From an uncultured virus (IMG/VR IMGVR_UViG_3300023033_000001) (Duplodnaviria > Heunggongvirae > Uroviricota > Caudoviricetes), in IMG/VR virus record IMGVR_UViG_3300023033_000001: DNA of 64,000 nt. The stretch is one strand, 5' to 3'. Shown here piece after piece: positions 17,611 through 63,771 of the stretch. Below the pieces are notes generated by a model. That model was given only the letters and a program-made list of their open reading frames with translations. It searched no databases and was not told where the DNA came from. The position numbers and the translations under genes were made by a program. How positions within the stretch are numbered: the first letter of the stretch is position 1; each line of letters begins with the position of its first letter.

Positions 17611-17708
17611 GGAACTACCCACCGCCTTTAGGCGGTGGTATTCAAATCCATTAGAATTTGATTTGTACATTCTCACGAATTGGGCTTCATGTTTCATTGA
17701 ACCGTTGA
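17611..17708 (-). ncRNA. Orphan TnpB reRNA (omega-RNA)-like scaffold plus right end
   Basis: Aligns over about 95 nt with 29636-29732 (tnpB 3' end and RE hairpin); no tnpB upstream. Confidence 0.7.
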
Positions 17709-18828: not shown

Positions 18829-18890
18829 TTCACCAAAGGGCGAGCGGAAGCCCACGGGCTAAAGACCGTTGGCTTTCGGCTCACTTATGG
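18829..18890. mobile_element. Head-to-head LE-LE fusion of IS605-type left ends
   Basis: TTCAC|CAAAGGGCGAGCGGAAGCCCACGGGC-TAAA on +; CATAAGTGAGCCGAAAGCCAACGG on -; both share one hairpin. Confidence 0.7.
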
Positions 18891-19536: not shown

Positions 19537-19693
19537 AAACAACACCTCCGTGCCCCAACAAACATATACTGTTTCGATAGATTCAGGGTCTGTGGTGCTG
19601 TTAAATCTGTGTAAGTCATCGTATGCTAAAATGACGATTTAAAGCAACGGTATTTCGTCGTTGCTCTTTTCTCAAATACTAGGAGAACAAACA

Positions 19694-22069
19694 ATGGCAT
19701 TAGAATCCACACGTACAATTAAAGAACTATCCGAAGAATGCGAAGCACGGAGACTTCACGTGAAACCAACAGGTAAGAATGGCAAATATTTAAAAGAGGA
19801 TTATATACGTGCGTTACGTGCTGATTATCTTGTTGAGCGTTACGGCGAACCGGACGGAGTTCCGTTTCCTTTACGGTTCATGCTGACGATGGACTGTCCG
19901 ATGCTGTGTAAACGATACGCTGCGATTAAGAAACCATCAGAGCAAATTGCCATATGGAAAAACGACGGAAAATACGCAGTTGAAGAGAAAATCGATGGTT
20001 GTTTTCATTATTCAACACCAGTTCTTCTCGCTGATGGAACCACAATGCCCATAGGAGAAATCGTTGAAAAGAAACTTTCAATAGAAGTGCTTTCGTTTGA
20101 TGAAACAACGCAAACACTGGTGCCTAGAAAAGTAGTCAGTTGGTTTGACAATGGGTATAAAAAGGCTTCCCAGTGGTTGAGGTTGAAAAATATAGGCAAG
20201 ACCAACGCACCATTCAGAAATGTTCGCCATCAAGGTGTTTTAATAACTCGTAATCATTCCATTTGGTCGGAAGGAGGATGGTTACCTGCCGAAGCTGCTA
20301 AAACTGTGAACATGATTACTCTTGGCATGAATAAAACACAAAAGCAAGTCATGTATGGATGTGTGCTTGGTGACGGCACGTGTTCGTATTCACGTAAAGA
20401 AGACAAGAACGCTTATTTTCAGTTTGTTCATTCTGTGAAGCAGAAAGACTACTTTGACAAAAAAGCTCTTTTGTTTTCTAGGTTTCCTCACAAAATTTCT
20501 GTAAACACATCTGGCTATGGTTCTGAGATTCATTCGTTTCGTGTAAATGCTTGTGCTGATGCCACAAGTCTTCGGACAAATGGATATTGTGATGGTCATC
20601 GTAAAGTCACACAAAGCTACTTATCCGAAGTTGGAACCCTTGGACTTGCTATATGGTTTATGGATGATGGTTCACGTATAAAAGAAAGAGATGAACTTGC
20701 ATGTCATTCAACAAATAAATTCTCTCGTGCAACCTTCTCAGCTTATCGGTACACTGAAAGTGACGTTCGAGAGCTTGTGTCGTGGTTAAATTCCTATGGC
20801 TATGAGGCGTCTGCTCACATGACAACACGAAAAAGTAAAAATCTTGGGTATGTAATCCAGTTGTCATCCAGTGGGAGTCAGTTATTTTTCAAAGACATCG
20901 CACCATATGTTCCTGTCTCAATGGAATACAAACTGCCTTTGGAGTTTCGTGGGGGACATAAAGAGTGTTGGTGGGATAACAACTCACCGGACTACAAAAC
21001 TGTCTCGACACCTGTTACATGGAGCTTTAATGACCGCAGTAATTGTGACCGTACAATAACATCAACGAAGGCATACGATATTGAAGTAGAAGGATGTCAC
21101 AGCTATGTGGCTAATGGTATGGTCGTTCACAATTCCAGAAGCATCTTGATTTATGATGCAGAACGTAAAGAGTTCGACTTTTACTCGCGCCACAATAGCG
21201 TTACAGACTTTTTGCCTATCTCGTACAAGAGCACTATCCGTACTTTCGGAACATTCACATCAGATACTAACTTCGTTCTCGACTGTGAAATCATCGCAAC
21301 CAATTCAAACACAAAAGCTCGTAAGACATGCACCACTCAGCTTAATTCAACATCTGCTTTGCTTGCGATGAACCCGGCAGAAAGTTTTGAAATTCAAAAG
21401 GATAGTCCGTTGATGTTCGTCATCTTTGACTGCCTTTACGATGGCGTTGATTTGCGTTCGCTTCCGTGGAAGGAACGTCATCCTCATGCCGAACGTCTTG
21501 CGAAAGAACTTTCCGACGCAGGGTTCCTATGCAAGATCAATCCATACGTGCTTGAAAACAAACGTGACTTCTATGAAAACATCATCCGACAGGGCGGGGA
21601 AGGCATTGTTGCAAAATTGGTTGATGCACCTTACACATCAACAACTTCACGAACTAACGATATGATTAAAGTCAAGAGAACCATTCAATGTGATCTGCTC
21701 CGTGATTTGGACGCGTGGGTGTCTGGTTACACAGAAGCAACAAAAGGAAAAGCCAATGAAAACTATATCGGAGGTCTTTGTTTCTCCGTAAAGATTCGTG
21801 ACAAGGAAGGAAACGTATCCGTTCGTGAAATCGGACGTGTTGCAGGTATTCCACAAGATCTCCGTATTGAGATGACTGATTACGACGATAATGGAAACCC
21901 AAAGCTGAAACATGAATACTATGGTCGTGTTGCAACGCTGTCAGGGCAGGACATTTCCGGCGTCAATATGCGAATCACACATTGCACGTTGAAAGAATGG
22001 CGTCCTGATAAAGGACCATCAGACTGTGAAACACTCGAAATGTCTGAATTGGAAAAACTCATTCTGTGA
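19694..22069 (+). CDS. ATP-dependent DNA ligase with a LAGLIDADG intein
   Basis: EKIDG|intein|SR motif I, LDCEI, FVIFDCL, GEGIVAK, IKVK and an OB-fold ending WRPDK; AGGAG SD before ATG 19694. Confidence 0.92.
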   Translation: MALESTRTIKELSEECEARRLHVKPTGKNGKYLKEDYIRALRADYLVERYGEPDGVPFPLRFMLTMDCPMLCKRYAAIKKPSEQIAIWKNDGKYAVEEKIDGCFHYSTPVLLADGTTMPIGEIVEKKLSIEVLSFDETTQTLVPRKVVSWFDNGYKKASQWLRLKNIGKTNAPFRNVRHQGVLITRNHSIWSEGGWLPAEAAKTVNMITLGMNKTQKQVMYGCVLGDGTCSYSRKEDKNAYFQFVHSVKQKDYFDKKALLFSRFPHKISVNTSGYGSEIHSFRVNACADATSLRTNGYCDGHRKVTQSYLSEVGTLGLAIWFMDDGSRIKERDELACHSTNKFSRATFSAYRYTESDVRELVSWLNSYGYEASAHMTTRKSKNLGYVIQLSSSGSQLFFKDIAPYVPVSMEYKLPLEFRGGHKECWWDNNSPDYKTVSTPVTWSFNDRSNCDRTITSTKAYDIEVEGCHSYVANGMVVHNSRSILIYDAERKEFDFYSRHNSVTDFLPISYKSTIRTFGTFTSDTNFVLDCEIIATNSNTKARKTCTTQLNSTSALLAMNPAESFEIQKDSPLMFVIFDCLYDGVDLRSLPWKERHPHAERLAKELSDAGFLCKINPYVLENKRDFYENIIRQGGEGIVAKLVDAPYTSTTSRTNDMIKVKRTIQCDLLRDLDAWVSGYTEATKGKANENYIGGLCFSVKIRDKEGNVSVREIGRVAGIPQDLRIEMTDYDDNGNPKLKHEYYGRVATLSGQDISGVNMRITHCTLKEWRPDKGPSDCETLEMSELEKLIL
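20000..21133 (+). mobile_element. Intein (378 aa) with a LAGLIDADG homing endonuclease, in ligase motif I
   Basis: CFHYSTPVLLADG...TRNH...GCVLGDG...AIWFMDDG...YDIEV...VVHN|S. Confidence 0.93.
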
Positions 22070-22227: not shown

Positions 22228-25200
22228 ATGTCTGACGAACTTTATACCAATAATGATGAATGGATGGACAACCCTGAGGACATTAACGATAACGACACCG
22301 AAGATAAAGAGGACGTTTCATATCTGTTCAACACACCTGACTTTCTTAAACCAAACACAGACACAGAATCTCAAAATGTAACCTTGTCAACAATCATAAA
22401 TTCAAGATTACAAGGTTATGGAGTTGTCAAGGATTTTGAAAACGAAGACCGTAAAGAAGTGGAAACGTCTCCTGATGAACAGCTTCGTGCTTCACTGAAA
22501 CAGAAGACTTTCTCCAAGTCTGAAATTCAGAGGTCTATTGATGACTTTCGCCGTGAGGTACAAACAAAGATAACGACGAAAGACCTTGTAGACACAATCG
22601 TTGAAGTTGCGTCTGGATACAAATCCAAAGGAGACAAACTTGACCTGCTAGGATGGGATATCCTTGATACGGAAAAGAGACATTATAAGTATGTGCCTTT
22701 ACAAGCAATTACTGATTTCTCACGCCGCGATACGACCATCCGTAAAGCCGTATTTCGTAACAGTTTTGTGAACTTCATTAAAACAGGCGAGAAAAAGTTC
22801 GTTCCTGTTCTCGGCGATGAACTTGTTTCGTTCATAATTGAAGAAGTGTTTCAGTCACCTGACTTGTTACCTGCTTCACAAGGGTACGACATGTTTAGAC
22901 GCATGGCACGTGGTGTACGTGGCGATGGTACTCCATTCTCAGTAAGTGAACTGGCAGACAGCATTAGATTCTCTTGCACACCGGATGCACTGCGTGTCAA
23001 ATTCAATACGCTTGTGTCTCAGAATAAAAACGGCGGTTCGACATTGGTTTCATACTACGCAAAACACAATATCAGTTTGGATAAAGAACAGCTGTCACGT
23101 GATTTTTCTGCACGGATTTCGACCTCCTGCAAGCGTGTTGTCGAAAGCGGTCAGTTCGGTTTTGTTCAAGAAGAAACCATCGACACTTTAAAAGCGATGG
23201 ACTCTATTATTCAAGAGATGATAAAGCGTAACCTTTTCCATGTACTTATAGGACCCGCAGGGTCTGGCAAGGCGATGCCGAAAGACATGAAAATCCCAAC
23301 CCCTGATGGTGAGAAAACTTTTGGAGAACTCAAAGTAGGAGACTTTGTATTTGACCGTAAGGGACACCCAACTAAAGTTTTAGGTGTGTATGATCGTGGC
23401 GTTCGTCCGTGTTTTGAGCTTACTTTTTCAGACGGTAGAAAAACACGTTGCTGTGACGAACATCTGTGGACTTGTTATACTTCAAAAAACAACTTCAAAA
23501 CTCTTACATTAAGGGAGATGATGGAACTTGGAATCCGTCACGAAGGTCGCAAAGAAGGTGCGAGATTCCGTATACCAACAAACGAATGCGTCGAATATGA
23601 GCAAAAGACTTTACCCGTTCACCCGTACATCGTCGGTGCATTCCTCGGTGACGGGTGCTGTAAAGAACTCAACCTTACCTTGTCTTCAGACGACATTCCA
23701 GTAGTGGAGAGGGTAGCAGCTCTCTTAAATGCTACATATAAAAAGACTAGCACACAGAATTATTCATGGATATTCATAAAGAACGGGCACCCACTTAAAA
23801 CTAAGGATGTGTTTAAAGAGGTTGCTCCATGTCTCATACAGGGTTCTAATGACAAGAGGGTTCCTTCAGATTACTTGTACGGTTCCCGTGAACAAAGAAT
23901 TGCTCTTCTTCAAGGACTGTTCGACACAGACGGGAGTGTGTCATACAGGTCAAACGGGATGGCAAACTTCTCAACAACAAGTAAAACTCTGTATGAAAAT
24001 GTGTCTTACCTGCTGAGAAGTCTTGGTGTGCAGGTTTCAAACAAGTCAAAACCTGTATGCCGTGGACGGGTAAAACATGACGGTACATGTTCAGTCGATT
24101 ATACGCTCATTACTTACTTAAAACCAGAACAGTTTGAAATGTGTTTCTCCTTGCCTAGACAGTTAGACAAGCTAAAAACAGTATATGGCACTTTCAAACA
24201 ACCTGCAAAACGTACCGACCGTGTTGCCTTAGTTGATGTGCGTGAGGTTGAACCTTGTGAACAACAATGCATTTTAGTCGATAATGAAGAACATCTATTT
24301 CTCGCCAACGATTTCATCGTTACACACAACACACATAAAGCAGTCAATGAATACTTCCCGACTCTGGAACAAAAACGAGGTAAAGGGACGTTGCTCGTAT
24401 CTCTATCCACATTGGTTGCAATCAATGGAGCTGATCGTGCAACAAAACGTAATAAACCAACCAATCCTTGTTCCATTACCATGTTCAACTTCTGTAATAA
24501 AAATCCTCTTCGTTGTGCATGGGTTACTGGGTATGACACTTACTGTATTGACGAGTTCTCACAGTGGGGACTTGAGCAGCTTGACACGTTCATGTCGATA
24601 TTAAAAAGAGCTTATCAAGAGCGTTCAAACCTTGTTATTCTTGGTGACCTTGTTCAGATAGGAACATTCCTTGGCAGAGGAAATCTGCTGTACATGCTGA
24701 CTGCTAATTACCCATACACGGAACTAAGCACAAACCACAGAATTAAGGACGCAAGAATCAGCGAGGTCATTGACGATATAAGAATCAGACAGACACGCTC
24801 TTTTGAACCATTTCGGATGGATCTTATTTCATTACAAGCCTTCCTGCACAAGAAACCCTCTAAAAGTGAAATGTGTATCACTGGAAGCAACGCGTATGCC
24901 GGACTTGTGAACGAACTAAAACTGGAAGCAGAACTTAGACAATCCATTAACGACAAACTTCCGAACTTCTATGTGCCATCAGGAACCTCCGACTGGAATG
25001 ATTATGACGTATGGAATCAAAACGAAGAATGGATTCGAACACGAATGAAAAAAACATCATTGAAGGTACGACCGAAAGAGAACTACAGATTTGAACAAGG
25101 AATCGGTAAAAGCCTTCGTGCGTCATACAGCACAAAGTTTTTACGAAATGAAACATGCATTGCAATGATGTCATCAGAGTTTACCGTATGCGTCACTTCA

Positions 25201-25569
25201 TGTGTATTCAAAACAAACGGAGTCTTCAAGACAGCAAACATTTCGTGGGGAGACTTCATTCAAAATTTCGTTCCATATTATGCAATCACTGTGAACAAAG
25301 CACAAGGGCTTGAATGGGATGACGTAGTTGTTCTGTACGGAAATCCTGAAAAATTGGACGAACGTCAAGGTGCATATGTTCCAAAGAAGAACTACAACCT
25401 AAACAGTTCTGATGCAGTACAAGCAACCTACGTTGCCATATCAAGACCACGTGAAACATTACGAATTTATTACGATGGAGTACGGACAACAAAACAAAAC
25501 ACACCCGTGTTCGCAAATCATCTGGACATCCTTAAAGAATTAGAACTTACTGTTACAAAAGGAGCTTAA
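22228..25569 (+). CDS. RecD/Dda-like SF1B helicase with an intein in Walker A
   Basis: GPAGSGK|intein|T, IDEFSQ, LGDLVQI, NHR, YAITVNKAQGLEW and YVAISRPR. Confidence 0.9.
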   Translation: MSDELYTNNDEWMDNPEDINDNDTEDKEDVSYLFNTPDFLKPNTDTESQNVTLSTIINSRLQGYGVVKDFENEDRKEVETSPDEQLRASLKQKTFSKSEIQRSIDDFRREVQTKITTKDLVDTIVEVASGYKSKGDKLDLLGWDILDTEKRHYKYVPLQAITDFSRRDTTIRKAVFRNSFVNFIKTGEKKFVPVLGDELVSFIIEEVFQSPDLLPASQGYDMFRRMARGVRGDGTPFSVSELADSIRFSCTPDALRVKFNTLVSQNKNGGSTLVSYYAKHNISLDKEQLSRDFSARISTSCKRVVESGQFGFVQEETIDTLKAMDSIIQEMIKRNLFHVLIGPAGSGKAMPKDMKIPTPDGEKTFGELKVGDFVFDRKGHPTKVLGVYDRGVRPCFELTFSDGRKTRCCDEHLWTCYTSKNNFKTLTLREMMELGIRHEGRKEGARFRIPTNECVEYEQKTLPVHPYIVGAFLGDGCCKELNLTLSSDDIPVVERVAALLNATYKKTSTQNYSWIFIKNGHPLKTKDVFKEVAPCLIQGSNDKRVPSDYLYGSREQRIALLQGLFDTDGSVSYRSNGMANFSTTSKTLYENVSYLLRSLGVQVSNKSKPVCRGRVKHDGTCSVDYTLITYLKPEQFEMCFSLPRQLDKLKTVYGTFKQPAKRTDRVALVDVREVEPCEQQCILVDNEEHLFLANDFIVTHNTHKAVNEYFPTLEQKRGKGTLLVSLSTLVAINGADRATKRNKPTNPCSITMFNFCNKNPLRCAWVTGYDTYCIDEFSQWGLEQLDTFMSILKRAYQERSNLVILGDLVQIGTFLGRGNLLYMLTANYPYTELSTNHRIKDARISEVIDDIRIRQTRSFEPFRMDLISLQAFLHKKPSKSEMCITGSNAYAGLVNELKLEAELRQSINDKLPNFYVPSGTSDWNDYDVWNQNEEWIRTRMKKTSLKVRPKENYRFEQGIGKSLRASYSTKFLRNETCIAMMSSEFTVCVTSCVFKTNGVFKTANISWGDFIQNFVPYYAITVNKAQGLEWDDVVVLYGNPEKLDERQGAYVPKKNYNLNSSDAVQATYVAISRPRETLRIYYDGVRTTKQNTPVFANHLDILKELELTVTKGA
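23272..24330 (+). mobile_element. Ala-start class-3-type intein (353 aa) with a LAGLIDADG domain
   Basis: AMPKDMKIPTPDG; block B HLW, block F QQCILVD, block G FIVTHN|T (the W-C-T triad); GAFLGDG and QGLFDTDG. Confidence 0.9.
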
Positions 25570-26357: not shown

Positions 26358-26406
26358 CAGAGGGCGAGCCGCAAGCCCACCTGCCTTTAGGCGGTGGGTA
26401 GTTCAC
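26358..26406 (+). mobile_element. 49-bp single-hairpin LE-RE mini-element
   Basis: TTGAC|CAGAGGGCGAGCCGCAAGCCCACCTGCCTTTAGGCGGTGGGTAGTTCAC. Confidence 0.8.
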
Positions 26407-29213: not shown

Positions 29214-29480
29214 AGTCACTCCGATCCATCTTTATTCACCATTAATAACTAATGGCTACTATTAAATCACACCAAAACTGGTGTGGAGGGATCTCTCATC
29301 GCAAGAAATATCTGCTTAAACAGGATGTTTCTTGCTCCGTTTATATCTCTGTCATGCACACGCTAGAAAGTTGGTGGCAGGAAACTATATCCAGTACAGA
29401 AGATACCACGTATTACCATCGCCACCAACGTCAGAATGGTAAAGAATACAACGGCACAGAAGACGCCTAGAAGAATGTTT

Positions 29481-29633
29481 AAAAACGCATCCATGTCGTT
29501 CACATTCCTGTACCTCTTCACAGGTATCACAAGGTTTCGTACAATCATTCCCGTCATCCTTGACCAGACAAATCATATCACAAACATTTCCAATGAACCC
29601 TTCCATCTTCAAATCCATTCTCACGTTTGTTTG
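29481..29633. repeat. About 150-bp imperfect direct repeat, copy B (RE flank and guide source)
   Basis: Aligns with 31166-31315; 47/48 identical over 29586-29633. Confidence 0.9.
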
Positions 29634-31165
29634 GTGAACTACCCACCGCCTAAAGTCGGTGGGCTTCAAATTCATTAGAATTTGATTTATCCATTCTCAC
29701 GAATTGGATTTCCTGTTTCAACGAACAGTCCACTCTACTAGAATTAAACCTAGTTTTGCTTCCCTGCCCTCCACAGGCATAAGTTCCGATAGTTCCTACC
29801 GTACTTTTAATCTTGCTTATCGCGTCATTTCGCAAATTGATTGCCGCGTTGTGGTCACGATTATGTTCTACACCACATTCTGGGCAAATCCATTTACGAA
29901 CGCTCAAATTCTTCACAGCTTCGTTCTTAAAACCACAATGACTGCACAACTGTGATGATGCGAACCACTTATCCGATTTAACCACGAAACAGTTATGAAA
30001 TTTGCTTTTCCATTCAAGCATATTCACAAACTTATTCCATGACACATCATTATAGTTTTTGGAATTGTGGCTGAAACGCATCATGCCTTTGATGTTCAAC
30101 GTCTCAACACCAATCACTTCATAACTACGGACAAGACGTAAAGTTTCTTTCTCCATCCAATCACGTCTTTTGTTAGCTATGTGTTCCTCAAATTTTGCCA
30201 ATCGTCGTCTAGCCTTTTCACGGTTTTTGGAGTCTTTCTTGGTTCTCGAAAAGTTCCTTTGCAAATGAGCCAGATGACGTTTTGCTTCTTGCTTGAATGG
30301 AACATAATTGTGTGCTGAGTGATTGTTTGAGTCAATGTAAGCCTTTGATGGTGAAAAATCCAGTCCGATAGCTTGGTTATCGTTACCAGAAAAAGACTTC
30401 TCTCTATCGTTCAAACTTTCATAGACGCAACAAATCGAAGCATAACAGCGTCCAGATTTTGTCACTTCGACGGTCAAATTCTTTCTCTTGATGCCTTTAG
30501 TATGGAACCATGCAGGAATGTGGTTATGACGAAACGTTACTTTGCCAATCTTTGGAATTTTAAGCCACATCTCATGTTCTGAAATAAGATCCTCCGACAG
30601 CATTACCTCGCTGAAAGAACAACCATCCTTTTTCTTCTTGAAACGTGGTTTTCCTTTCTTGCCCTTAAAGAACTCAGAGTATGATTTTTGAGCATCACGC
30701 CTAGCCTGTTGCAGAGCAACGGATGAAACTTCCTTCAGAAAAGGAAACAACTCACAAAGATCTTTCTCTAATGTGTATTTGAACCCTTTATAAATCTTGT
30801 TCTTTTCGTCTTTGTTCAGGTTACGACCTTTGATGTTATCAGCGTAAAATTGTTCCCTTGCTTCGACGTATTTGTTGTAGACAAAACGACGGCATCCACC
30901 AGTTTTGATGAACATTTGAAGTTGTTCTGGTGTTGGGTACAATCTGATTTTAAGACTACGCTTAATTTCCATTGGTAACTGACCTGTGTTACTGACCGAT
31001 ATGTGTGGTGGCAAACACTCGGTCAAAGTGTCTTTCGGGGATCAGCCTAGCCACCAAACATATAAATAGCATAACATGATGCTTCTTTCAAGTGCTTGTT
31101 TCAATTAAATTGGCTAGCTTTCATCCCACGGTCTAAAGCCCTTTGGTTTTCAAGCTCACAGTATG
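29634..31165 (-). mobile_element. IS200/IS605-family (IS1341-like, tnpB-only) element
   Basis: LE after TTTAT (31170-31166) with a subterminal hairpin; RE hairpin ending GGGTAGTTCAC at 29634; no tnpA. Confidence 0.9.
29650..30972 (-). CDS. tnpB: RNA-guided endonuclease TnpB
   Basis: KIRLYPT HTH start; RuvC IGLD, VETL and RDHNAAINL (D-E-D intact); CSHCG/CPECG zinc finger. Confidence 0.95.
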   Translation of the reverse strand: MEIKRSLKIRLYPTPEQLQMFIKTGGCRRFVYNKYVEAREQFYADNIKGRNLNKDEKNKIYKGFKYTLEKDLCELFPFLKEVSSVALQQARRDAQKSYSEFFKGKKGKPRFKKKKDGCSFSEVMLSEDLISEHEMWLKIPKIGKVTFRHNHIPAWFHTKGIKRKNLTVEVTKSGRCYASICCVYESLNDREKSFSGNDNQAIGLDFSPSKAYIDSNNHSAHNYVPFKQEAKRHLAHLQRNFSRTKKDSKNREKARRRLAKFEEHIANKRRDWMEKETLRLVRSYEVIGVETLNIKGMMRFSHNSKNYNDVSWNKFVNMLEWKSKFHNCFVVKSDKWFASSQLCSHCGFKNEAVKNLSVRKWICPECGVEHNRDHNAAINLRNDAISKIKSTVGTIGTYACGGQGSKTRFNSSRVDCSLKQEIQFVRMDKSNSNEFEAHRL

Positions 31166-31315
31166 ATAAATGCCTCGCGATCATTCACATTCCTGTAACT
31201 TTCAATCTGTATCCCAATATTCCGTATCATCACAGTCATCCTTGATCAGATAAGTTATTTTAGACTGATTTCCAATGAACCCTTCCATCCTCAAATCCAT
31301 TCTCACGTTTGTTTG
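31166..31315. repeat. About 150-bp imperfect direct repeat, copy A (contains the guide-matching site)
   Basis: Matches copy B; overlaps the 3' end of ORF 31260-31685. Confidence 0.9.
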
Positions 31316-31685
31316 ACAAGCCAGGCATCCTTTTTCCGTTTAATAATATCACAGCTTCGCAGTATAACTCATCATCACAGGACATGCCACGAAGACACCC
31401 GATCATAATATGACAGGCATCATATACGGTTGTAAACACATTCAGATTACGCCACGGTAAAGGTTTTTTTGGGTAATGGTAATACTTGACACATAAAGTG
31501 CATTTCTTACTGTTTCTACCTGTTTGAACGCCAAGAAGTTCGCCTCTTGCAGTCACTGCATCGAGATGTTTGTCTCCATGTTGATTGATTTTAATGGTTT
31601 CTTCAAGCTGCTCTAAACTTACTTTGTCATTCCGTGCCATCGTGTTCTTTATCCTGAGTATTTTCCTTGTGGTTTTTCTGTTCAC
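31260..31685 (-). CDS. Hypothetical protein whose 3' end matches the TnpB guide
   Basis: ORF of up to 141 aa; true start uncertain. Confidence 0.6.
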   Translation of the reverse strand: MNRKTTRKILRIKNTMARNDKVSLEQLEETIKINQHGDKHLDAVTARGELLGVQTGRNSKKCTLCVKYYHYPKKPLPWRNLNVFTTVYDACHIMIGCLRGMSCDDELYCEAVILLNGKRMPGLSNKRENGFEDGRVHWKSV

Positions 31686-34906: not shown

Positions 34907-35515
34907 ATGGCACGACAAAATAAAACAATCAAACCTAATACAGAAGAGAAAAAGCAACAAGAGCAACAGGAACTTGAAGAGCTCAAGCTCAGAATGGATA
35001 AGATGAAAGCCGAAGAAGAGCGACTAAAAGCAAACACGGTTCCAACGGCTGAGTATCTTGAAAACATTCGCAAAACGCATAAAGACCCGTATTGGATGTC
35101 GTATGAAGTGGTACAGATAAAGCTCGGATCACCCATACAGACGATTTTCACTAGCGAACATTACTACGAGGCATTCGACGTTTTCAAGGAATACTTCGAG
35201 AAAGATAAACACGCCAGAATGGATTTGGTCGTTCGTGAGGTACGTGATGGCACACCTATTTTCAGAACAATCGTAGCTGAATTTGAGGTAGCGGGAGCAC
35301 ATGGGGATGTGACATCTGATGGAAGACAAACACTTTCATCGTTTGCTAGTCCGACCGATTATGGACGTTTTGGCCCTAGTGTGTACAATCAAACGTACAA
35401 AGATGCTAAATGGGCAGGATATGAGGCATACTCTCGCCCCCTAAAGACTTTCAGTTATGGAGATTGTAGCAGTGGTTTTGACCAGAAAAGCGAGCCGAAA
35501 GCCCACCCGCTTTAG
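34907..35515 (+). CDS. Hypothetical protein; C-terminus encoded by a mini-element
   Basis: Ends DQKSEPKAHPL* with the TAG in the hairpin loop. Confidence 0.7.
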   Translation: MARQNKTIKPNTEEKKQQEQQELEELKLRMDKMKAEEERLKANTVPTAEYLENIRKTHKDPYWMSYEVVQIKLGSPIQTIFTSEHYYEAFDVFKEYFEKDKHARMDLVVREVRDGTPIFRTIVAEFEVAGAHGDVTSDGRQTLSSFASPTDYGRFGPSVYNQTYKDAKWAGYEAYSRPLKTFSYGDCSSGFDQKSEPKAHPL

Positions 35516-35531
35516 CGGGTGGGTAGTTGAC
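35483..35531 (+). mobile_element. 49-bp single-hairpin LE-RE mini-element
   Basis: TTGAC|CAGAAAAGCGAGCCGAAAGCCCACCCGCTTTAGCGGGTGGGTAGTTGAC. Confidence 0.8.
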
Positions 35532-43203: not shown

Positions 43204-43241
43204 GTGAACTACCCACCCGCTTTAGCGGGTGGGTAGTTCAC
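43204..43241. mobile_element. Perfect 38-bp RE-RE palindrome
   Basis: GTGAACTACCCACCCGC-TTTA-GCGGGTGGGTAGTTCAC. Confidence 0.85.
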
Positions 43242-44250: not shown

Positions 44251-44390
44251 ATCGCTACCTCACTTCATTTAAGATAAAAGTCTCGATAGCAACCTTTCCA
44301 ACCATTTCAATGTTGCTATCATCACACGATCTTATAGCACACTATTTCTTACAGTATCTCTAACAGCACCACGAAACAAAAAGTCTCCTA

Positions 44391-44412
44391 CTTTAGGCGG
44401 TGGGTAGTTCAC
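44391..44412 (+). mobile_element. Half-hairpin RE remnant between divergent promoter boxes
   Basis: CTTTAGGCGGTGGGTAGTTCAC. Confidence 0.75.
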
Positions 44413-44931: not shown

Positions 44932-44962
44932 ATTACCCACCGTCTTTAGCGGGTGGGATTCA
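44928..44962 (-). mobile_element. RE hairpin copy
   Basis: GTGAATTACCCACCGTCTTTAGCGGGTGGGATTCA. Confidence 0.75.
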
Positions 44963-44988
44963 AAACAGAGTATCTGGTGAGGTGTTGC

Positions 44989-45972
44989 ATGTTTCGTTCA
45001 TTTGAATCAGTTAAAATTGATGATCCTGTACTTGAACTTGAATGGGAAGACCTGTCATTGATTGGCGGAGCTACTGGTCTTGCCCTAAGTCTTAAAAACA
45101 GTCTTTCGAAGTTCCTAAGAAATTATGGAGAACACGACATTCTTGAAGACTTATATCATGCAGTGGCGCTTGGTCTTAGTAATCTCCAAGAAATCGGTAT
45201 GTTTGACGGTTTTTTGTCAAATCCTAATATTGAGTTTCGTGGAAAGACTAATATTTCCATACAGAATAAACTTGATAGACATCACATACATTCAGCAGGT
45301 CGTCCTCTTGAAAAGGTCTTTAACGACTTGATTGGTATTAGAATTATCGTAGAAGATTATTCAGTATGGGAATCTGTAAAACATAAGTTTGATTCATCGG
45401 TGTGTACTGTCGTTGACATGAGATGCGGAAAGTTCCCTGATGATGGTTACAGAGCTGTTCACGTTTACTTCCAAGCTGATCACTTGCATTATCCTGTTGA
45501 ACTTCAATTCGTGTCTGAGCATGACAGTCAGTTCAACGCATGGCAACACGACCATGCATATAAGTCATCATGGTTTGCTCCTTCTGTAGGAAAGAAATTG
45601 CGTGAGTTATACGATGACTGGAAAATTCAGACAGAGGATGAGTATGTGTCAGAGCTCACTAAACTGTCATCAATGGTTACGTACTCAGAAAAAAGGACGT
45701 GGGAAGGTACGAAACTTGTTGCGTGCAGATTCGGTATAAAGGGGTGTATAGGGTACATGCCTGAAACGATTCACGAGTTAATGTACCTTTATCGTGAACT
45801 TTGTCCCTATTGTAGAAGACAGATTCCAACAGTCGATGTAACTGTCGTTAAGGGAGAGAGTTATGCTGAGTTTAGTCCATGTACGATCTACGCTACCTAT
45901 ACTGATTTTTATGCGGCGATATTCCATGATTTGTTAAGAAAACCTGAACGGCACTCACGGTGTACACCATGA
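44989..45972 (+). CDS. RelA/SpoT nucleotidyltransferase-domain protein (small alarmone synthetase-like)
   Basis: NDLIGIRII, DDGYRAVHVY and PVELQ; GAGGTG SD before ATG 44989. Confidence 0.8.
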   Translation: MFRSFESVKIDDPVLELEWEDLSLIGGATGLALSLKNSLSKFLRNYGEHDILEDLYHAVALGLSNLQEIGMFDGFLSNPNIEFRGKTNISIQNKLDRHHIHSAGRPLEKVFNDLIGIRIIVEDYSVWESVKHKFDSSVCTVVDMRCGKFPDDGYRAVHVYFQADHLHYPVELQFVSEHDSQFNAWQHDHAYKSSWFAPSVGKKLRELYDDWKIQTEDEYVSELTKLSSMVTYSEKRTWEGTKLVACRFGIKGCIGYMPETIHELMYLYRELCPYCRRQIPTVDVTVVKGESYAEFSPCTIYATYTDFYAAIFHDLLRKPERHSRCTP

Positions 45973-46000
45973 ACTACCCACCCGCTAAAGGCGGTTGGTA
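45970..46000 (-). mobile_element. RE hairpin copy
   Basis: TGAACTACCCACCCGCTAAAGGCGGTTGGTA; its TGA is the stop of the RelA/SpoT gene. Confidence 0.75.
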
Positions 46001-46040: not shown

Positions 46041-46072
46041 TCGTTACCACCGCCTAAAGGCGGTGGTAACGA
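46041..46072. repeat. Palindrome of the same hairpin family
   Basis: TCGTTACCACCGCC-TAAA-GGCGGTGGTAACGA. Confidence 0.75.
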
Positions 46073-47018: not shown

Positions 47019-47359
47019 GTCAACTACCCACCGCCTTTAGGCGGTGGGCTTGTAACTGACCCGTAGCTCTTGGTCGAGTGTTTGACACTCTACTACGTTT
47101 TTTACCAACTTTCTTTTCAGAAGATTGGCTGTCGTTACATCGTGGGGTGATTGACTGCACCCCGTAGGCTTGAATCATGTTCAAGACCCACTTAAACTTG
47201 AATCTTGGTGTTTAAGTTCAGAGAGTGCCTTCAGTCCAAGTACCAAACGGTTTTCTCTCAAAACCTTAAATACAAAATATCACTTAACAAAGCAAGCAAG
47301 ATTTTTAGTTGGCTCGCTTACCCACGGGCTTTAGCCCGTGGGCTTCCGCTCGCCTTATG
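47019..47359 (-). mobile_element. 341-bp non-autonomous IS605-type element (LE, promoter, reRNA-like scaffold, RE)
   Basis: TTCAC|CATAAGGCGAGCGGAAGCCCACGGGC... LE; TTGCTT-N17-TATTTA; GGGGTGCAGTCAATCACCCC hairpin; ends ACAAGCCCACCGCCTAAAGGCGGTGGGTAGTTGAC. Confidence 0.8.
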
Positions 47360-47364
47360 GTGAA

Positions 47365-49329
47365 CTAATCTCTGATAAGTTCGACCGTAAGGTTCTCAGG
47401 CACAAAGTTGCTCGGTGTAACGACCGAACCGTCCTTGACATCCAAACGATAATTCATAGCAGAGATAATGCCTTCAAACTCATTCGGGAGCGAAGCACAT
47501 CCAAACCCTTCATGGAACACCTTATCTCCCCAAGGTGACACTGTAACTGACTCGTCATTCTCAGGATTTTTGTACGTGAGTTGTACACGTGCATTGACAT
47601 CCTCATCGAAGTTCAGAACTATCCACGGATGATGGGTGCCACTTGCATAGATAGCACCAAGGATATTGTGTTCTGCATTCACAAGAATTTTCTCATGAAT
47701 CTGGACTTTGACATTTGCAGACTTCGTGAGATCTTTATCTGCAAACAACTCATACATGGTATCTCCTGCAGCTGCATCGCCTTGGACATAGAAGGTACGA
47801 CCAATCCACTCAGCAACACTGTTTTCGATGACACGAACTTTAATGAACGTGTCTGTGCCATTACCGTCTTCCCAAACCTTGGCGGCTTTACCATCGGCAA
47901 GTTTATTTCCATCCATGTCATAAGACGTAAAGGTGCAGCCAATATTGTTCCAGTTACCGGGTGCATTATTGACGGTATCCCATATATCCTCATCAGGATA
48001 TTTCTCATAATATTTCTTCAAGCCACCATGTTCAAGAGATTCGTTGAATGCGGCAGCCTGTTCTTCTGCAGTTCCAAGTCCAATACACTCTGCACGTTTG
48101 TCGCCACCAAGCCAGTCAATAACTTCATGCGAGGAAAGAATGTCGCTTGCCTTTACGAAGTAAGCACCCTCAATGAAGTCCTCATTGTCCGCAGGACGTT
48201 CAGGAACGATGATAATATTTCCGTCTCTATCTTCATTGTACGACAGACACTCATAATAAACATCATCGCCATTACTGAATGCTTTGAGACGAATAGCGAG
48301 GTCACCGATTTCACCATCTTCATTGAGGTCAGAACCACCCATAACAAGACCACGAGGTTTATCCGATTCATCCGCTTCAAAGTCAGCAATAGGCATCGCA
48401 AGGTCGCTTTCAGGAACAACCAGAGTTGCGATTTGAACTTCAGGAGTTCCAATCTTGTTATATCCTGCAAGAGTCGGATCGCCATTGGCATCAACAGGAT
48501 ACTGACAAATGTATTTCTTAATACCACTTTCCGTAAAAGAGCTGCGAAGATTTACAGGCAGAATGCTCTTTTCGCCAGTGTCTTCATCTGTAAGAATTGC
48601 CAGGGCAAGACCGATACGGACGATTTCAGTTGCATCGTCAAAGAGTCTTCCTTCGATATTGTATTCTACACCATCGACCATAACGGTACAGAACAACGGT
48701 GAGTCACCGAGTAACTCATGGTTCTTTTTCTCTTTTGCAACCGCACATCGAGTGCCTTCAATCAATGTATGGGTTTCACCGATTTTGGAATCCAATGTTG
48801 GATGAAGAACCAAAACATGACCACTCTTGACAACGTACTGAGTACGCGGGTCATGCACAATGTCCTGACTCTCGACCACTTCTTCTGACGGAACAGGAAG
48901 CAAACTGCTTGTCCATACCCATTTCGATACAGGAGAGCGTTCCAGGAAATTACGTCCATGTGCATCGCCATCAAGTTTCTTCACCTGTGTGGTATCAAGT
49001 CGAACACGATAATAAACCTTTCCGTTTTTATCCGTGTAGCTGAACTTTGACATCACATCTATTTTGTGACCAAGACTTACGGTATCATCGCCAAAAGTCT
49101 CTTTCAGATACGGCAGAATCATTACCTCTGCATTACCCGGACAAACACGACCAACATGAAGGTACTTTGTTTCCGTACCCTCCCCACTTGCCAGTTCAAA
49201 GTCCTTAACATCCTCAGCAAATGATTCCGATATTGGTGCGACATTAGACGTTCCAAGACGTACTTCATGTTCAAAACTCCGAACAAAAAGAATTTTTTTC
49301 AATGCTTTCATACTTATACCGATGCTCAT
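47365..49329 (-). CDS. Acidic hypothetical protein, probably structural
   Basis: About 654 aa; directly downstream of the tape-measure-like gene. Confidence 0.7.
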   Translation of the reverse strand: MSIGISMKALKKILFVRSFEHEVRLGTSNVAPISESFAEDVKDFELASGEGTETKYLHVGRVCPGNAEVMILPYLKETFGDDTVSLGHKIDVMSKFSYTDKNGKVYYRVRLDTTQVKKLDGDAHGRNFLERSPVSKWVWTSSLLPVPSEEVVESQDIVHDPRTQYVVKSGHVLVLHPTLDSKIGETHTLIEGTRCAVAKEKKNHELLGDSPLFCTVMVDGVEYNIEGRLFDDATEIVRIGLALAILTDEDTGEKSILPVNLRSSFTESGIKKYICQYPVDANGDPTLAGYNKIGTPEVQIATLVVPESDLAMPIADFEADESDKPRGLVMGGSDLNEDGEIGDLAIRLKAFSNGDDVYYECLSYNEDRDGNIIIVPERPADNEDFIEGAYFVKASDILSSHEVIDWLGGDKRAECIGLGTAEEQAAAFNESLEHGGLKKYYEKYPDEDIWDTVNNAPGNWNNIGCTFTSYDMDGNKLADGKAAKVWEDGNGTDTFIKVRVIENSVAEWIGRTFYVQGDAAAGDTMYELFADKDLTKSANVKVQIHEKILVNAEHNILGAIYASGTHHPWIVLNFDEDVNARVQLTYKNPENDESVTVSPWGDKVFHEGFGCASLPNEFEGIISAMNYRLDVKDGSVVTPSNFVPENLTVELIRD

Positions 49330-56242: not shown

Positions 56243-59215
56243 TTAGATTGCTCCGGATTCAACTGTATTTGCTGACGAATCAACAATGAAATCAACAGTA
56301 AAGATTTCAGCATCAGGAACGAACTGTAAATGAATCACGCCGTTGATTTTACGCTGTGCAATCAATTCTGGTGATGTCGTGTCGAAACCCATTGCAACAG
56401 AATACTGTGCAAGACCTCCAAGTGCGTATATAGGTTCAAGAATGCTTGAAGAAACGTACTGTTTCCATTTCTGCCAAAGAGAACGGTCATTAAGCGAGAA
56501 TGTCAGTGTGTTCGTATACCGATCAACCTGCTGGTGGATATACACGAGAGTTCTTGCGATATGGGCTGCACTCAAATCGGTGTATTTGTAATTCAAGGTT
56601 TCATTTCCGTAAATTTGAACACCAAGTACGCCCAAATCGAAAATAGGATTGATTCGATGATTGATAAGTTTATTTCGTTCTGTCTTTGTGGATGGATTGC
56701 GAATAACAGAAACACCGTCAGGAAGTTTACCACCCTGCTCACCGGCAACAGGATAGAACGTACCACGTGTACGATATGAAGCAAGGCCACGCATGATGAC
56801 GAGATAACATGGCGACATGTCAACACGTACAGTATTCGAAAGGACACCGTTATTCAGTTTCTGACAGGTCACACGAACCCAATCCCAATACATCTCACAG
56901 TAAAAACTCTGATCACCATAAGTAACAGGCTCAGACATGCCGTATTCCCATAGGTCAGAAAATTCACCAAGAGAGTTTACCCAGTTGCACGCATCATCCA
57001 GCGACATACCATATGGAGTTGTAAATATGCATGTCAAATCCTTACGGTCAGCTGCAATCTGTTTTAGGTAGTAATGTAATACACGTCTTGGAGACTCCTC
57101 CTCCTCTATTTTTTCAGGAAGATGGACAAGGTTTCCATCTTCATCTGTAACCATCGCAGAAAGCTCGGAAATAAAACATCCGTTATATGCAGGATTCTTG
57201 AACTCTTCAAAAGCACGCTGATAATCACCAACACCGAACGCCATTTTGCCCTGTGATAGAATAATTGGTTCTCCACAAGTATGTCCGCTTTTAACGACCG
57301 AACGTAAAGTCTCCACAACATCCGTACCATTAGCCTCATAGGGTTCCATGAGCGTAAACGACAGATAACTGCCCAATACAGAGTTCAACGACTCCATGAA
57401 AGCACCGTTTGATAAACCCTCCGCCAGTGAAACACGTGTTGAAACAATCACATTCTGGTCAGGATTCGATTCATCATAATGAGAATACAGACGCACATCC
57501 ATTGCATACAGACCCAAAGATTTCGGTTTTAGCTGTATCAATTTTGTCATCAAGTAGAGTTCATCTGTGATACTCGAAATAACATCAGCATAAGGCTTTG
57601 TCGCAGCCGTGTGTTTAACAGAAACCTCAAGACCATCTGTGAAAGGGATTTCAACACCCTCAGAATTCTTCTGCTTCTGGAATGTGACTTTTGTCTTGAT
57701 TTCGCTGTCAACCATAACGGTCTCGACCTTGTAGTCAATCCCATCAACCATGTATGTGCACGACACAGGGCTGTTAGCCACATAAAGCCGTGTTTCACCA
57801 GAACCAGTAGATGCAAACGTAATCAGATTATTTGTCTTCGCATCTTCGTATTCCGTTGCATCGTAAAGTACTTCACCACCTAAAAGCGTGCAGGGCACGA
57901 CACCCGGTAGAAAACGACCAAGCATGTCATCCGTTTTTACAGAAGCATCAACAGGATTACGTTTTTGATTGATTGCACATGCTAGTGCAACATTCATCCC
58001 GAACTTCGTATTTGTTGAAGCCATCTTAACGCTTGACGGATATGTTGCAAACATACCGACAGGTGCAAGAGCACCCGAAGTGTCCGACCCAGTAGAGACT
58101 CTCGACAGAATCACGACATAATCATTGTCTTCAATGGCACTCTTGACATCTTCCTGCGAATACCAGTCAGTGTCGGTCGTGTCTATGGCAATAATGGATT
58201 TCTGTGAAGCCCCCATAGCTGAAAGTTTCCCGAAAGCGTCTGCAAGATCAAATTCAGGTTCAGACGAAGGGAACGGAACAAAAATAAATTCGCCACACCC
58301 CGCAGAATTGAACCAGTACGTAATAATCTCATACACAGGCGAACTGTCATCAATTCCATAAATATTGCGAAGTTTAGCCAAGTCTCCGATTTTCCAGATA
58401 CCATGATAGTTACCGACGCCACCCTCAAGGGCAGTCCAGTCCGATAGCTCAGTTAAAAGCTCTTCATCGCTCTTGTCAAAAGAACCATACACTACAGTGT
58501 TTGAGTCAAACGAGTTAGCAACTGTATCACCACTGGAAGAAAGATTTTCAATCTCTTTGTATCCATCAGAACCCTTTTCACCTACATGTACTGTATAAAT
58601 GCTTCCTGTTTCGACACCATCCTGCATGGTGGATTCACGTGAAACCTTGACAGCAATGTTGTTACCGAAAGCACCCATTCGACGCATAAAAATTGTATTG
58701 GTTGAATCAAGTTCTTTCTTGGCTACCTTGTCAAGCGTACCGAAAGCAGTCTCGAAACCAAGCACAGGAATCCCATTCCCATTCGTTATATCTGAAAGTT
58801 TCGTGTAACCGTCAATAAGAAGAACACCGTCTTCATCTGTACGCATTATATCTGTGAAAGTGTCTTTCTTTGAATCATCATTCAACAGACAAATAAACTC
58901 AGCAGGATCACCAGAGGGTACTTTGCTGATATAAACAGAAAAACCAGTACGTACAATTTCACGAACTGCATAAAGGTCACGATACTTTTCAGGGTCAATA
59001 CGTGGGTCACCAAACACACGGTCAAGCGTGTCTGTATCTTGAATAAATACAGGTTCATAAACAAGTTCCTCCGAATCTGACTTGGGCTTCGGTCCCCACG
59101 GCGTGACACACGCGAACAGTCCGGCGAAATCGGGTGCGTTCTTGATAAGCGAATTGTCCTTGATATATGTCTGGACATACGCCGCCTCTCTCGTAGTTGT
59201 AGGTTTCATAAGCAT
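56243..59215 (-). CDS. Contractile tail sheath protein
   Basis: TPWGP..EPV..LDRVFGDP N-terminus; RINPI...IYGNETL, HIARTL and FSLND C-terminus. Confidence 0.92.
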   Translation of the reverse strand: MLMKPTTTREAAYVQTYIKDNSLIKNAPDFAGLFACVTPWGPKPKSDSEELVYEPVFIQDTDTLDRVFGDPRIDPEKYRDLYAVREIVRTGFSVYISKVPSGDPAEFICLLNDDSKKDTFTDIMRTDEDGVLLIDGYTKLSDITNGNGIPVLGFETAFGTLDKVAKKELDSTNTIFMRRMGAFGNNIAVKVSRESTMQDGVETGSIYTVHVGEKGSDGYKEIENLSSSGDTVANSFDSNTVVYGSFDKSDEELLTELSDWTALEGGVGNYHGIWKIGDLAKLRNIYGIDDSSPVYEIITYWFNSAGCGEFIFVPFPSSEPEFDLADAFGKLSAMGASQKSIIAIDTTDTDWYSQEDVKSAIEDNDYVVILSRVSTGSDTSGALAPVGMFATYPSSVKMASTNTKFGMNVALACAINQKRNPVDASVKTDDMLGRFLPGVVPCTLLGGEVLYDATEYEDAKTNNLITFASTGSGETRLYVANSPVSCTYMVDGIDYKVETVMVDSEIKTKVTFQKQKNSEGVEIPFTDGLEVSVKHTAATKPYADVISSITDELYLMTKLIQLKPKSLGLYAMDVRLYSHYDESNPDQNVIVSTRVSLAEGLSNGAFMESLNSVLGSYLSFTLMEPYEANGTDVVETLRSVVKSGHTCGEPIILSQGKMAFGVGDYQRAFEEFKNPAYNGCFISELSAMVTDEDGNLVHLPEKIEEEESPRRVLHYYLKQIAADRKDLTCIFTTPYGMSLDDACNWVNSLGEFSDLWEYGMSEPVTYGDQSFYCEMYWDWVRVTCQKLNNGVLSNTVRVDMSPCYLVIMRGLASYRTRGTFYPVAGEQGGKLPDGVSVIRNPSTKTERNKLINHRINPIFDLGVLGVQIYGNETLNYKYTDLSAAHIARTLVYIHQQVDRYTNTLTFSLNDRSLWQKWKQYVSSSILEPIYALGGLAQYSVAMGFDTTSPELIAQRKINGVIHLQFVPDAEIFTVDFIVDSSANTVESGAI

Positions 59216-59609
59216 CTCCTTTTCGTTGTACAACGTAAAATCGTGCCCGTGCGGGTCAGCACCGATGTGCGCACAACAGGTGAAGACCTTAGATGCACAT
59301 ACGGCACGTAAATATATACGTCAAAATTTGATAAATAAACGTCATGATGTGCTTATGGCTAGGAAACAAAGACACATAAGACTTTCAGACATATACTGTC
59401 GGTCACTCGCCAACAGGTACAATGCGTGTCTCTATGCGATGGTCTTCACCACGAAGACATAGCAAAAAGTTTGTCCAGACACGACCCCTAAATGCATTGA
59501 AATGAGCAACAATGTATGAATCAAACGTCTTATACTGACGCCATTCAGAATCATTAACACGTTTCAGTTCAATCTGATACTTCATTGCACTCAATCCTTT
59601 CAAAAAAGA

Positions 59610-63737: not shown

Positions 63738-63771
63738 GTGAACTACCAACCGCCTAAAGGCGGTTGGCTTC
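63738..63771 (-). mobile_element. RE hairpin copy
   Basis: GTGAACTACCAACCGCC-TAAA-GGCGGTTGGCTTC. Confidence 0.8.

Follow-up and report, generated by a model that had tools for sequence, protein, structure and literature searches.

A TnpB element between two diverged copies of a gene segment in a very large phage, and its predicted TAM-less target in cis

The TnpB element and the repeat that flanks it

The window analysed here, a stretch of 64,000 nucleotides (nt) from the uncultured virus IMGVR_UViG_3300023033_000001 (Caudoviricetes), contains an insertion sequence (IS) that encodes a TnpB protein. The role attributed to TnpB nucleases is to keep the transposon that encodes them at its site. 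Here the IS lies between gene141, which encodes a protein of 141 amino acids (aa), and a small membrane-protein gene, and the sequence that would serve as its guide recurs inside gene141. All features of this cassette are on the minus strand, and positions are coordinates of the window. The parts of the element are as follows.

30973..31165, minus strand: left end (LE) of the IS, starting CATACTGTGAGC, with a weak subterminal hairpin
29650..30972, minus strand: tnpB, 440 aa from ATG, recognized by its Pfam domains, its match to ISDra2 TnpB and its ratio of nonsynonymous to synonymous substitution rates (dN/dS)
29634..29860, minus strand: presumed scaffold of the omega RNA or right-end element RNA (reRNA), drawn from a consensus fold, overlapping the 3' end of tnpB and the right end (RE)
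29663-29642, minus strand: RE hairpin; the RE terminates TAGTTCAC at 29634
29609..29633, minus strand: RE flank that would encode the guide, equal to the first 25 nt of copy B of the repeat described below

The protein matched the Pfam families HTH_OrfB_IS605 (6.9e-15), OrfB_IS605 (2.9e-15) and Cas12f1-like_TNB (2.1e-21). Its match to the PDB chains of ISDra2 TnpB reached an E-value of 5e-55, and other TnpB/Cas12 chains scored 1e-22 or weaker. Residues D205, E290 and D373, together with C343, C346, C363 and C366 (CxxC..CxxC), align with those of ISDra2 TnpB, whose catalytic residues we take to be the three acidic ones, and are invariant in three copies of the element. The RuvC D-E-D residues had been called intact in the first-pass annotation of this DNA, and this alignment agrees. 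With its helix-turn-helix, RuvC and zinc-ribbon domains and the acidic triad, the element is, by its domain set, a TnpB of the IS200/IS605 family.

A scan by alignment gave 29 loci, three of them close copies of the IS and 26 at 33-38% identity, which were unusable for the target-adjacent motif (TAM) of this element. The close copies lie in other very large viral contigs, namely L003 (91% aa identity), L004 (87%) and L005 (84%, internally deleted). A search with the LE pattern returned the contig of L003 only, and no close relative of the IS was present among the genome contigs searched. Among the window, L003 and L004, tnpB has a dN/dS of 0.073-0.095 at a synonymous divergence (dS) of 0.69-0.94; judged by this low ratio and by its intact catalytic and zinc residues, tnpB is maintained. 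The tnpB of L005 (1501-2348) has an internal deletion of about 460 nt.

The boundaries of the IS are fixed by independent copies. Homology with L003 spans 31168-29633 and is lost outside, and the RE terminus TAGTTCAC is present in all four copies, with the sequence diverging after it. In addition, 24 public sequencing runs, each sharing 0.05-0.09 of sampled words, were identified and contigs from four of them were compared. These contigs end at 29632-29634 and at 31169-31170, where other IS copies differ in their flank. Members of IS200/IS605 have a subterminal hairpin at each end and lack terminal inverted repeats; here the RE hairpin is strong at the DNA level (fold z -5.8), and the LE hairpin is weak, as detailed below. 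The Y1 transposase TnpA (PF01797) was not found in the 75 open reading frames (ORFs) of at least 100 aa in the window, nor in either of two relative records. By its gene content the element is therefore a non-autonomous, TnpB-only member of IS200/IS605, and since TnpA is absent it would have to spread by recombination or with a TnpA of the host.

The first-pass annotation had noted that the RE flank recurs in the neighbouring ORF, and sequence comparison confirmed this. The 25 nt of the flank (29633-29609) match 31315-31291, inside the ORF 31685-31260, at 25 of 25 positions, and 47 of 48 positions are identical over the longer block when copies A and B are aligned. When guide prefixes of 16, 20 and 25 nt were searched with up to three mismatches, these were the only two sites within the window. 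The match had been taken to mean that the guide is aimed at the neighbouring gene; this explanation had to be replaced, as the match arises from two diverged copies of one 150-nt segment that flank the element. Comparison of the window with itself by BLAST returned a direct repeat of 138 nt (79% identity, E 1e-27), and copy A (31315-31166) and copy B (29633 to about 29481) are identical at 116 of 150 positions over their full length. The 25/25 match is thus the head of a diverged direct repeat of 138-150 nt, far beyond chance, whose edges coincide exactly with the LE and RE edges of the TnpB element. The repeat and its genes are listed below.

31260..31685, minus strand: gene141, ORF of 141 aa; the first 48 nt of copy A encode its C-terminal tail S124-K139, which is conserved
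31316..31320, minus strand: TAM position of the in-cis target copy, CTTGT, in frame GGC TTG T(CA)
31291..31315, minus strand: in-cis copy of the guide target, 25/25 identical to the RE flank
31166..31315, minus strand: copy A of the 150-nt unit, ending in TTTAT (31170-31166); it holds 22 codons of the membrane-protein gene, followed by the LE
29481..29633, minus strand: copy B of the 150-nt unit, with an orphan gene141 tail (SNKRENGFEDGRVHWKCL and stop), the spacer and the start of the membrane-protein gene, which is intact here
29363..29557, minus strand: small membrane-protein gene, 64 aa, intact in copy B only

The repeat unit begins with the last 19 codons and the stop codon of gene141, continues through a spacer and ends within the membrane-protein gene, of which about 22 codons from the start are included. 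In copy A the gene141 tail is joined to its own gene and the membrane-protein gene is truncated by the LE; copy B, conversely, has an orphan tail behind the RE and a complete membrane-protein gene. Both genes are therefore whole despite the insertion, because the unit is present on both sides. A target-site duplication was rejected as the origin of the repeat, which is 150 nt long and diverged. A small ORF in an alternative frame (MDL[K/R]MEGFIGN...) was also considered as the cause of the 48-nt conservation and rejected: its length differs among copy A, copy B and the relative L001, and it is not conserved in the relative L008.

Guide RNA, TAM and the relatives of the target site

The consensus fold of the presumed scaffold, based on four copies, has 58 predicted pairs, of which four show compensatory changes. 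For ISFba1 TnpB, the available text of PMC11061315 describes a 20-nt guide, a strict 5-nt TAM, cuts at 16 and 22 nt, and the loss of cleavage after a single TAM substitution. By analogy, the first 16-20 nt of the RE flank are probably used as guide. The LE is preceded by TTTAT in the window (31170-31166), by TCTAT in L003 and by ATTAT in L004, and the alignment with an IS copy that has an unrelated flank, from the public run X1, extends through 31170. These LE junctions point to a motif of the YTAT type, in a small sample of three readable junctions. From its junctions, the element is inserted directly 3' of a short T-rich motif, which is the predicted TAM. The RE junction, TAGTTCAC/CAAAC..., fits an insertion at TTTAT/CAAAC in the gene141 tail (site 1).

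The guide in the RE flank, the TTTAT before the LE and the CTTGT (GGC TTG TCA) before the in-cis match had all been described correctly in the earlier annotation. Its statement that the TAM position differs by one synonymous base stood in part. The difference is synonymous, but it is not a single base, since the copy-A site departs from TTTAT at two positions, -5 (T>C) and -2 (A>G). All three readable LE junctions have A at -2, and position -5 varies among them.

It had also been predicted that a relative without the element would carry a TTA-TCA allele, and such an allele was found in L001. This 98.6-kb viral contig has a gene141 that is 81% identical and a single repeat unit, and the whole record is free of IS copies. 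Its gene141 reads GGT TTA TCA AAC..., so that TTTAT directly precedes a sequence identical to the guide at 25 of 25 positions; this is the empty site TTTAT/CAAAC. Between the window and L001 the two TAM codons changed from GGT to GGC and from TTA to TTG, both synonymously (written from L001 to the window). Position -2 is A in both L001 and the outgroup L008 and G only in the window, and on this comparison the TAM-breaking -2 change looks derived in the window lineage.

A third relative with one unit and without the IS was found in run X1, where a contig joins 29633 to 31354 with 41 letters between them. Over 331 nt its gene141 part shows 4 differences; in its unit part, 28 of 278 nt differ from copy B. 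Searches of IMG/VR with the 24-nt target, with the 502-aa neighbour and with a degenerate tail pattern each retrieved only the contig of L001. A metagenome scan for the site gave three loci, which are the source itself, the duplicate of L001 and L008, and megablast of the 3.4-kb region against phage records gave no match.

Homologues of gene141 form 16 clusters, and gene141 has no Pfam or PHROG family match. The tail pattern PG[LVIM]SNK[KR]E.GFEDGR.H.K is kept in 19 of 19 aligned sequences, so that an IS at site 1 would probably carry a cost if no rescue copy were present. The KREN form of the tail, which encodes the target, occurs in four of these 19 proteins (window, L001, P0002 and P0004) and also in copy B.

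Origin of the arrangement and its possible function

The arrangement could have arisen from two insertion alleles of the same IS. In the first, the IS would have entered at TTTAT/CAAAC in the gene141 tail (site 1), giving the RE junction; in the second, it would have entered after the TTTAT of the copy-A membrane-protein gene (site 2), 150 nt downstream, giving the LE junction. A crossover of both alleles inside the shared IS would then produce the order copy A-IS-copy B, with both flanking genes whole. Outside the first 48 nt, identity is 69/102 between copies A and B, 73/102 between copy A and L001, and 80/105 between copy B and L001. Because A and B diverge from each other as each does from L001, the two alleles probably come from different phage lineages and not from a recent duplication within the genome.

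The gene141 homologues also suggest mosaicism. P0004 agrees with the window at 48 of 68 residues in the body of the protein and at 10 of 12 and 16 of 16 in the tail. P0001 agrees at 67 of 68 in the body and at 6 of 13 in residues 112-123, and ends in a KKET tail. The break of P0001 at codon 111 corresponds to position 31354 of the X1 joint, and the 41 letters fit its extra codon; P0001 is thus probably the protein of the X1 contig. As indirect evidence, this break next to the cassette fits an import of tail and cassette by recombination, and it also fits ordinary phage mosaicism.

Taken together, these features suggest that the recombined cassette combines a nuclease with a TAM-less rescue copy, sparing itself and cutting alleles of the L001 type, to which we give a probability of about 0.5. 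The guide RNA would read from the RE into copy B, and TnpB would, by analogy with ISFba1 TnpB, open DNA only beside a YTAT-type motif. Copy A, with CTTGT and a perfect target, and the RE junction would be spared. In a co-infection, genomes of the L001 type, with TTTAT and the full target, would be cut 16-22 nt into the gene141 tail. Repair from a genome of the window type would then transfer either the TAM-less tail alone or the tail with the nuclease cassette. The outcome would be homing independent of TnpA, or localized marker exclusion.

The same parts might instead serve regulation in the manner of TldR, with TnpB and its guide RNA repressing the copy-A site or the gene141 tail of relatives without cutting. 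Against this, the acidic residues of RuvC are all retained, DNA opening would need a TAM that the in-cis site does not have, and the position of that site is the 3' end of a gene and not a promoter. We regard such a role as very improbable.

Several observations weigh against a self-sparing nuclease cassette. Among the relatives, a sensitive site is present in only one (L001) of the two IS-free records with a readable site, as L008 (68% identical, IS-free) has CGTAT and mismatches the guide at five of 25 positions. P0001-type KKET tails would mismatch the guide as well. An allele of the first kind, in which the tail is replaced by LE sequence, was found in none of 16 gene141 homologues. A second match to the guide was absent from all three other IS copies (L003-L005) within about 1.5 kb on each side, where the flanks hold no homologue in the window; such a match is therefore not a general habit of the IS family. 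The RAGATH-18 matches of the scaffold, at the same place in three of four copies, score 25.6-27.0 bits, below the gathering score of 44.9. The order copy A-IS-copy B is known only from the window's own 243-kb source contig (L006, 100% identical).

This last point also bears on whether the arrangement exists in one genome. In an assembly chimera, a strain carrying the IS at site 1 would have been fused through the shared IS with a second strain carrying it at site 2, and the guide and the TAM-less site would belong to different genomes. In favour of this, copies A and B are as divergent as alleles from two lineages would be, a short-read insert would typically not span the 1.53-kb IS, and no contig from the four compared runs bridges the A-LE or the RE-B junction. 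However, the contig continues unbroken for 243 kb, whereas branching strain graphs usually break. A real recombination inside the IS would yield an identical product, and the region is mosaic in nature. A chimera thus appears improbable.

The remaining adverse points concern the element and its TAM. The LE hairpin of the window has a z of 0.07, with 103 of 200 shuffles folding as well or better (z is -2.8 for the LE of L003), and L004 and L005 have degenerate LEs that lost most of the hairpin. From these ends, the IS family includes immobilized, decaying copies in other very large phage contigs. As for the TAM, 25 of the 113 codons with a conserved amino acid differ synonymously between the gene141 of the window and that of L001, and the chance that both adjacent TAM codons change synonymously is about 0.05, which is weakly unusual. 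Against the 15 unchanged target codons stands a comparable stretch of 16 identical codons in another part of gene141. On these numbers, the case that selection on the TAM upholds the TAM-less state is weak.

A rival reading is an inert scar, in which the order A-IS-B would have come from recombination between two IS copies, or from a tandem duplication with an insertion at its junction, TnpB would be inactive in infection, and the change between CTTGT and TTTAT would be neutral drift. The common synonymous differences, the decaying copies (including the tnpB deletion of L005), the weak LE hairpin of the window and the missing second guide matches all agree with it. On the other side, the tnpB of the window is full length with intact catalytic residues and a dN/dS of 0.07-0.10, and the guide-RNA region is conserved with compensatory pairs. 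The junction of a tandem duplication would moreover have to fall exactly on TTTAT/CAAAC, and the identity between copies A and B does not exceed that of either copy to L001. An inert scar is in our view unlikely, less so than a chimera.

Returning to a cassette that spares itself, a more specific form of it can be proposed tentatively, and it seems doubtful though possible. The TAM-less recoded gene141 tail, TnpB and the guide RNA would constitute a natural home-and-rescue drive in very large phages. TTAT-bearing gene141 alleles of co-infecting relatives would be cut in a tail that looks essential, and gene141 would be rescued by the drive's own uncuttable copy, so that the drive could spread without a transposase. 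Its footprint would be the scattering of the tail module over distant gene141 backgrounds (P0004, P0002 and L001). Synthetic home-and-rescue or cleave-and-rescue drives are engineered Cas9 systems in insects. The layouts are alike, each having the 5' part of the target gene, a resistant copy of its 3' end, a nuclease with its guide and a leftover 3' end. The difference is that here the layout is natural and the function is predicted.

Among the closest known systems is the ISDra2-type IS200/IS605 TnpB with its omega RNA or reRNA (restorative homing). The domain set, the catalytic residues and the guide in the RE flank are shared, as are the insertion 3' of a T-rich TAM-like motif and an empty site with TAM and flank in a relative, here L001. 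Unlike in that system, no TnpA was found in the window or in two relative records, and the two flanks are not partners, the LE being flanked by a second, diverged copy of the segment, so that the genome holds an extra TAM-less target in cis. With ISFba1, an IS607 element whose TnpB uses a RAGATH-18-derived reRNA according to the available text of PMC11061315, the element shares a weak RAGATH-18-like module, below threshold here. It differs from ISFba1 in that the scaffold overlaps the 3' end of tnpB, the protein is much closer to ISDra2, and the TAM is T-rich and not AG-rich.

In its logic, the proposed function resembles 'transposon non-restorative homing', a term of a 2026 review (PMC13565253) whose available text names co-infecting phages only as a theoretical case. 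The available part of a 2025 preprint (PMC11870625) supports TnpB-driven spread of an IS among plasmids with an engineered IS607 element. As these sources present it, the drive is independent of TnpA, with an IS-free homologue being cut and the IS then copied by recombination, and the cassette described here would follow the same logic. In contrast to the plasmid case, the target here lies in a natural phage relative and the cassette includes a TAM-less rescue copy. For the free-standing homing endonucleases of T-even phages (SegF, SegB and others), the same portion of PMC13565253 further describes intronless homing and localized marker exclusion. Shared with these are a nuclease beside a conserved gene, self and non-self alleles separated by few substitutions, and favoured flanking markers of the donor. 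They recognize their site by protein-DNA contacts, whereas recognition here is predicted to be RNA-guided with a TAM, by a transposon-derived nuclease. Self and non-self would here be told apart by CTTGT at the in-cis site against the YTAT-type junction motif, a resistance predicted from sequence.

No description of a natural phage case of such an arrangement was found in the main texts of the literature searched, which is not proof of absence. The locus offers a natural test set, consisting of a guide, a sensitive L001 allele, an in-cis allele that differs only at the TAM, and an RE-protected junction. If the predicted discrimination is true, transposon-derived RNA-guided nucleases would act in competition between phages as free-standing homing endonucleases do, and a duplication that rescues the gene would let a nuclease cassette sit inside a conserved gene.

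Genome context and IS-derived repeats

By its gene content, the genome that hosts the cassette, represented by the 243-kb source contig, is that of a myovirus-like phage. A tail-sheath match (56243-59233), an amidase, an exonuclease, intein-like inserts and relatives in IMG/VR all indicate a phage. The intein-like inserts lie in an ORF for an ATP-dependent DNA ligase with LAGLIDADG_2 (19661-22069) and in a helicase-like ORF with LAGLIDADG_3/Hom_end (22228-25569), and are probably inteins or inserted homing endonucleases. Together with the TnpB cassette, they mean that this phage would host several kinds of homing element.

The interval from gene141 to the 502-aa gene is, from its differing gene content, a variable hot spot. 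Homologues of the membrane-protein ORF lie at 5450-5623 in L001 and at 4397-4558 in L008. Between the membrane-protein and 502-aa genes, both relatives carry two adjoining ORFs of 248 and 259 aa (5714-7252 in L001, 4958-6496 in L008), which have DLPYG-type motifs and appear DNA methyltransferase-like, by eye alone. These two ORFs are absent from the corresponding interval of the window (29219-29363).

Besides the RE of the IS itself (29642-29663), a nearly identical hairpin occurs at about ten further sites in the window, mostly intergenic and in both orientations.

17618-17639: RE-type hairpin
26377-26398: RE-type hairpin
35502-35523: RE-type hairpin
43212-43233: RE-type hairpin
44383-44404: RE-type hairpin
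44936-44957: RE-type hairpin
45977-45998: RE-type hairpin
46046-46067: RE-type hairpin
47027-47048: RE-type hairpin
63746-63767: RE-type hairpin

TAGTTCAC-like sequence comes after most of these hairpins, and the reverse complement of TAGTTCAC flanks some of them. No copy of the hairpin was found in the 15.5-kb syntenic locus of a relative (L009). From their sequence and distribution, mobile mini-elements that arose from IS ends seem likelier than fixed terminators.

A 94-nt remnant at 17612-17705 shares 85% identity with the final 94 nt of the IS, which comprise the 3' part of the guide RNA and the RE, and has a different flank. A contig of run X1 contains this remnant too, with an identical flank, and since it is common to both it is older than the polymorphism of the tnpB cassette. 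LE-like hairpins were seen at 18851-18884 and 47320-47370. At 47321-47370 (minus strand) the RE terminus TAGTTCAC abuts an LE-like start, CATAAGG..., a configuration like that of an RE-LE circle junction or of two adjoining mini-elements. Finally, the hairpin repeats at 44936 and 45977 enclose an ORF (44953-45972) whose product has a RelA/SpoT nucleotidyltransferase domain (E 1.3e-08).

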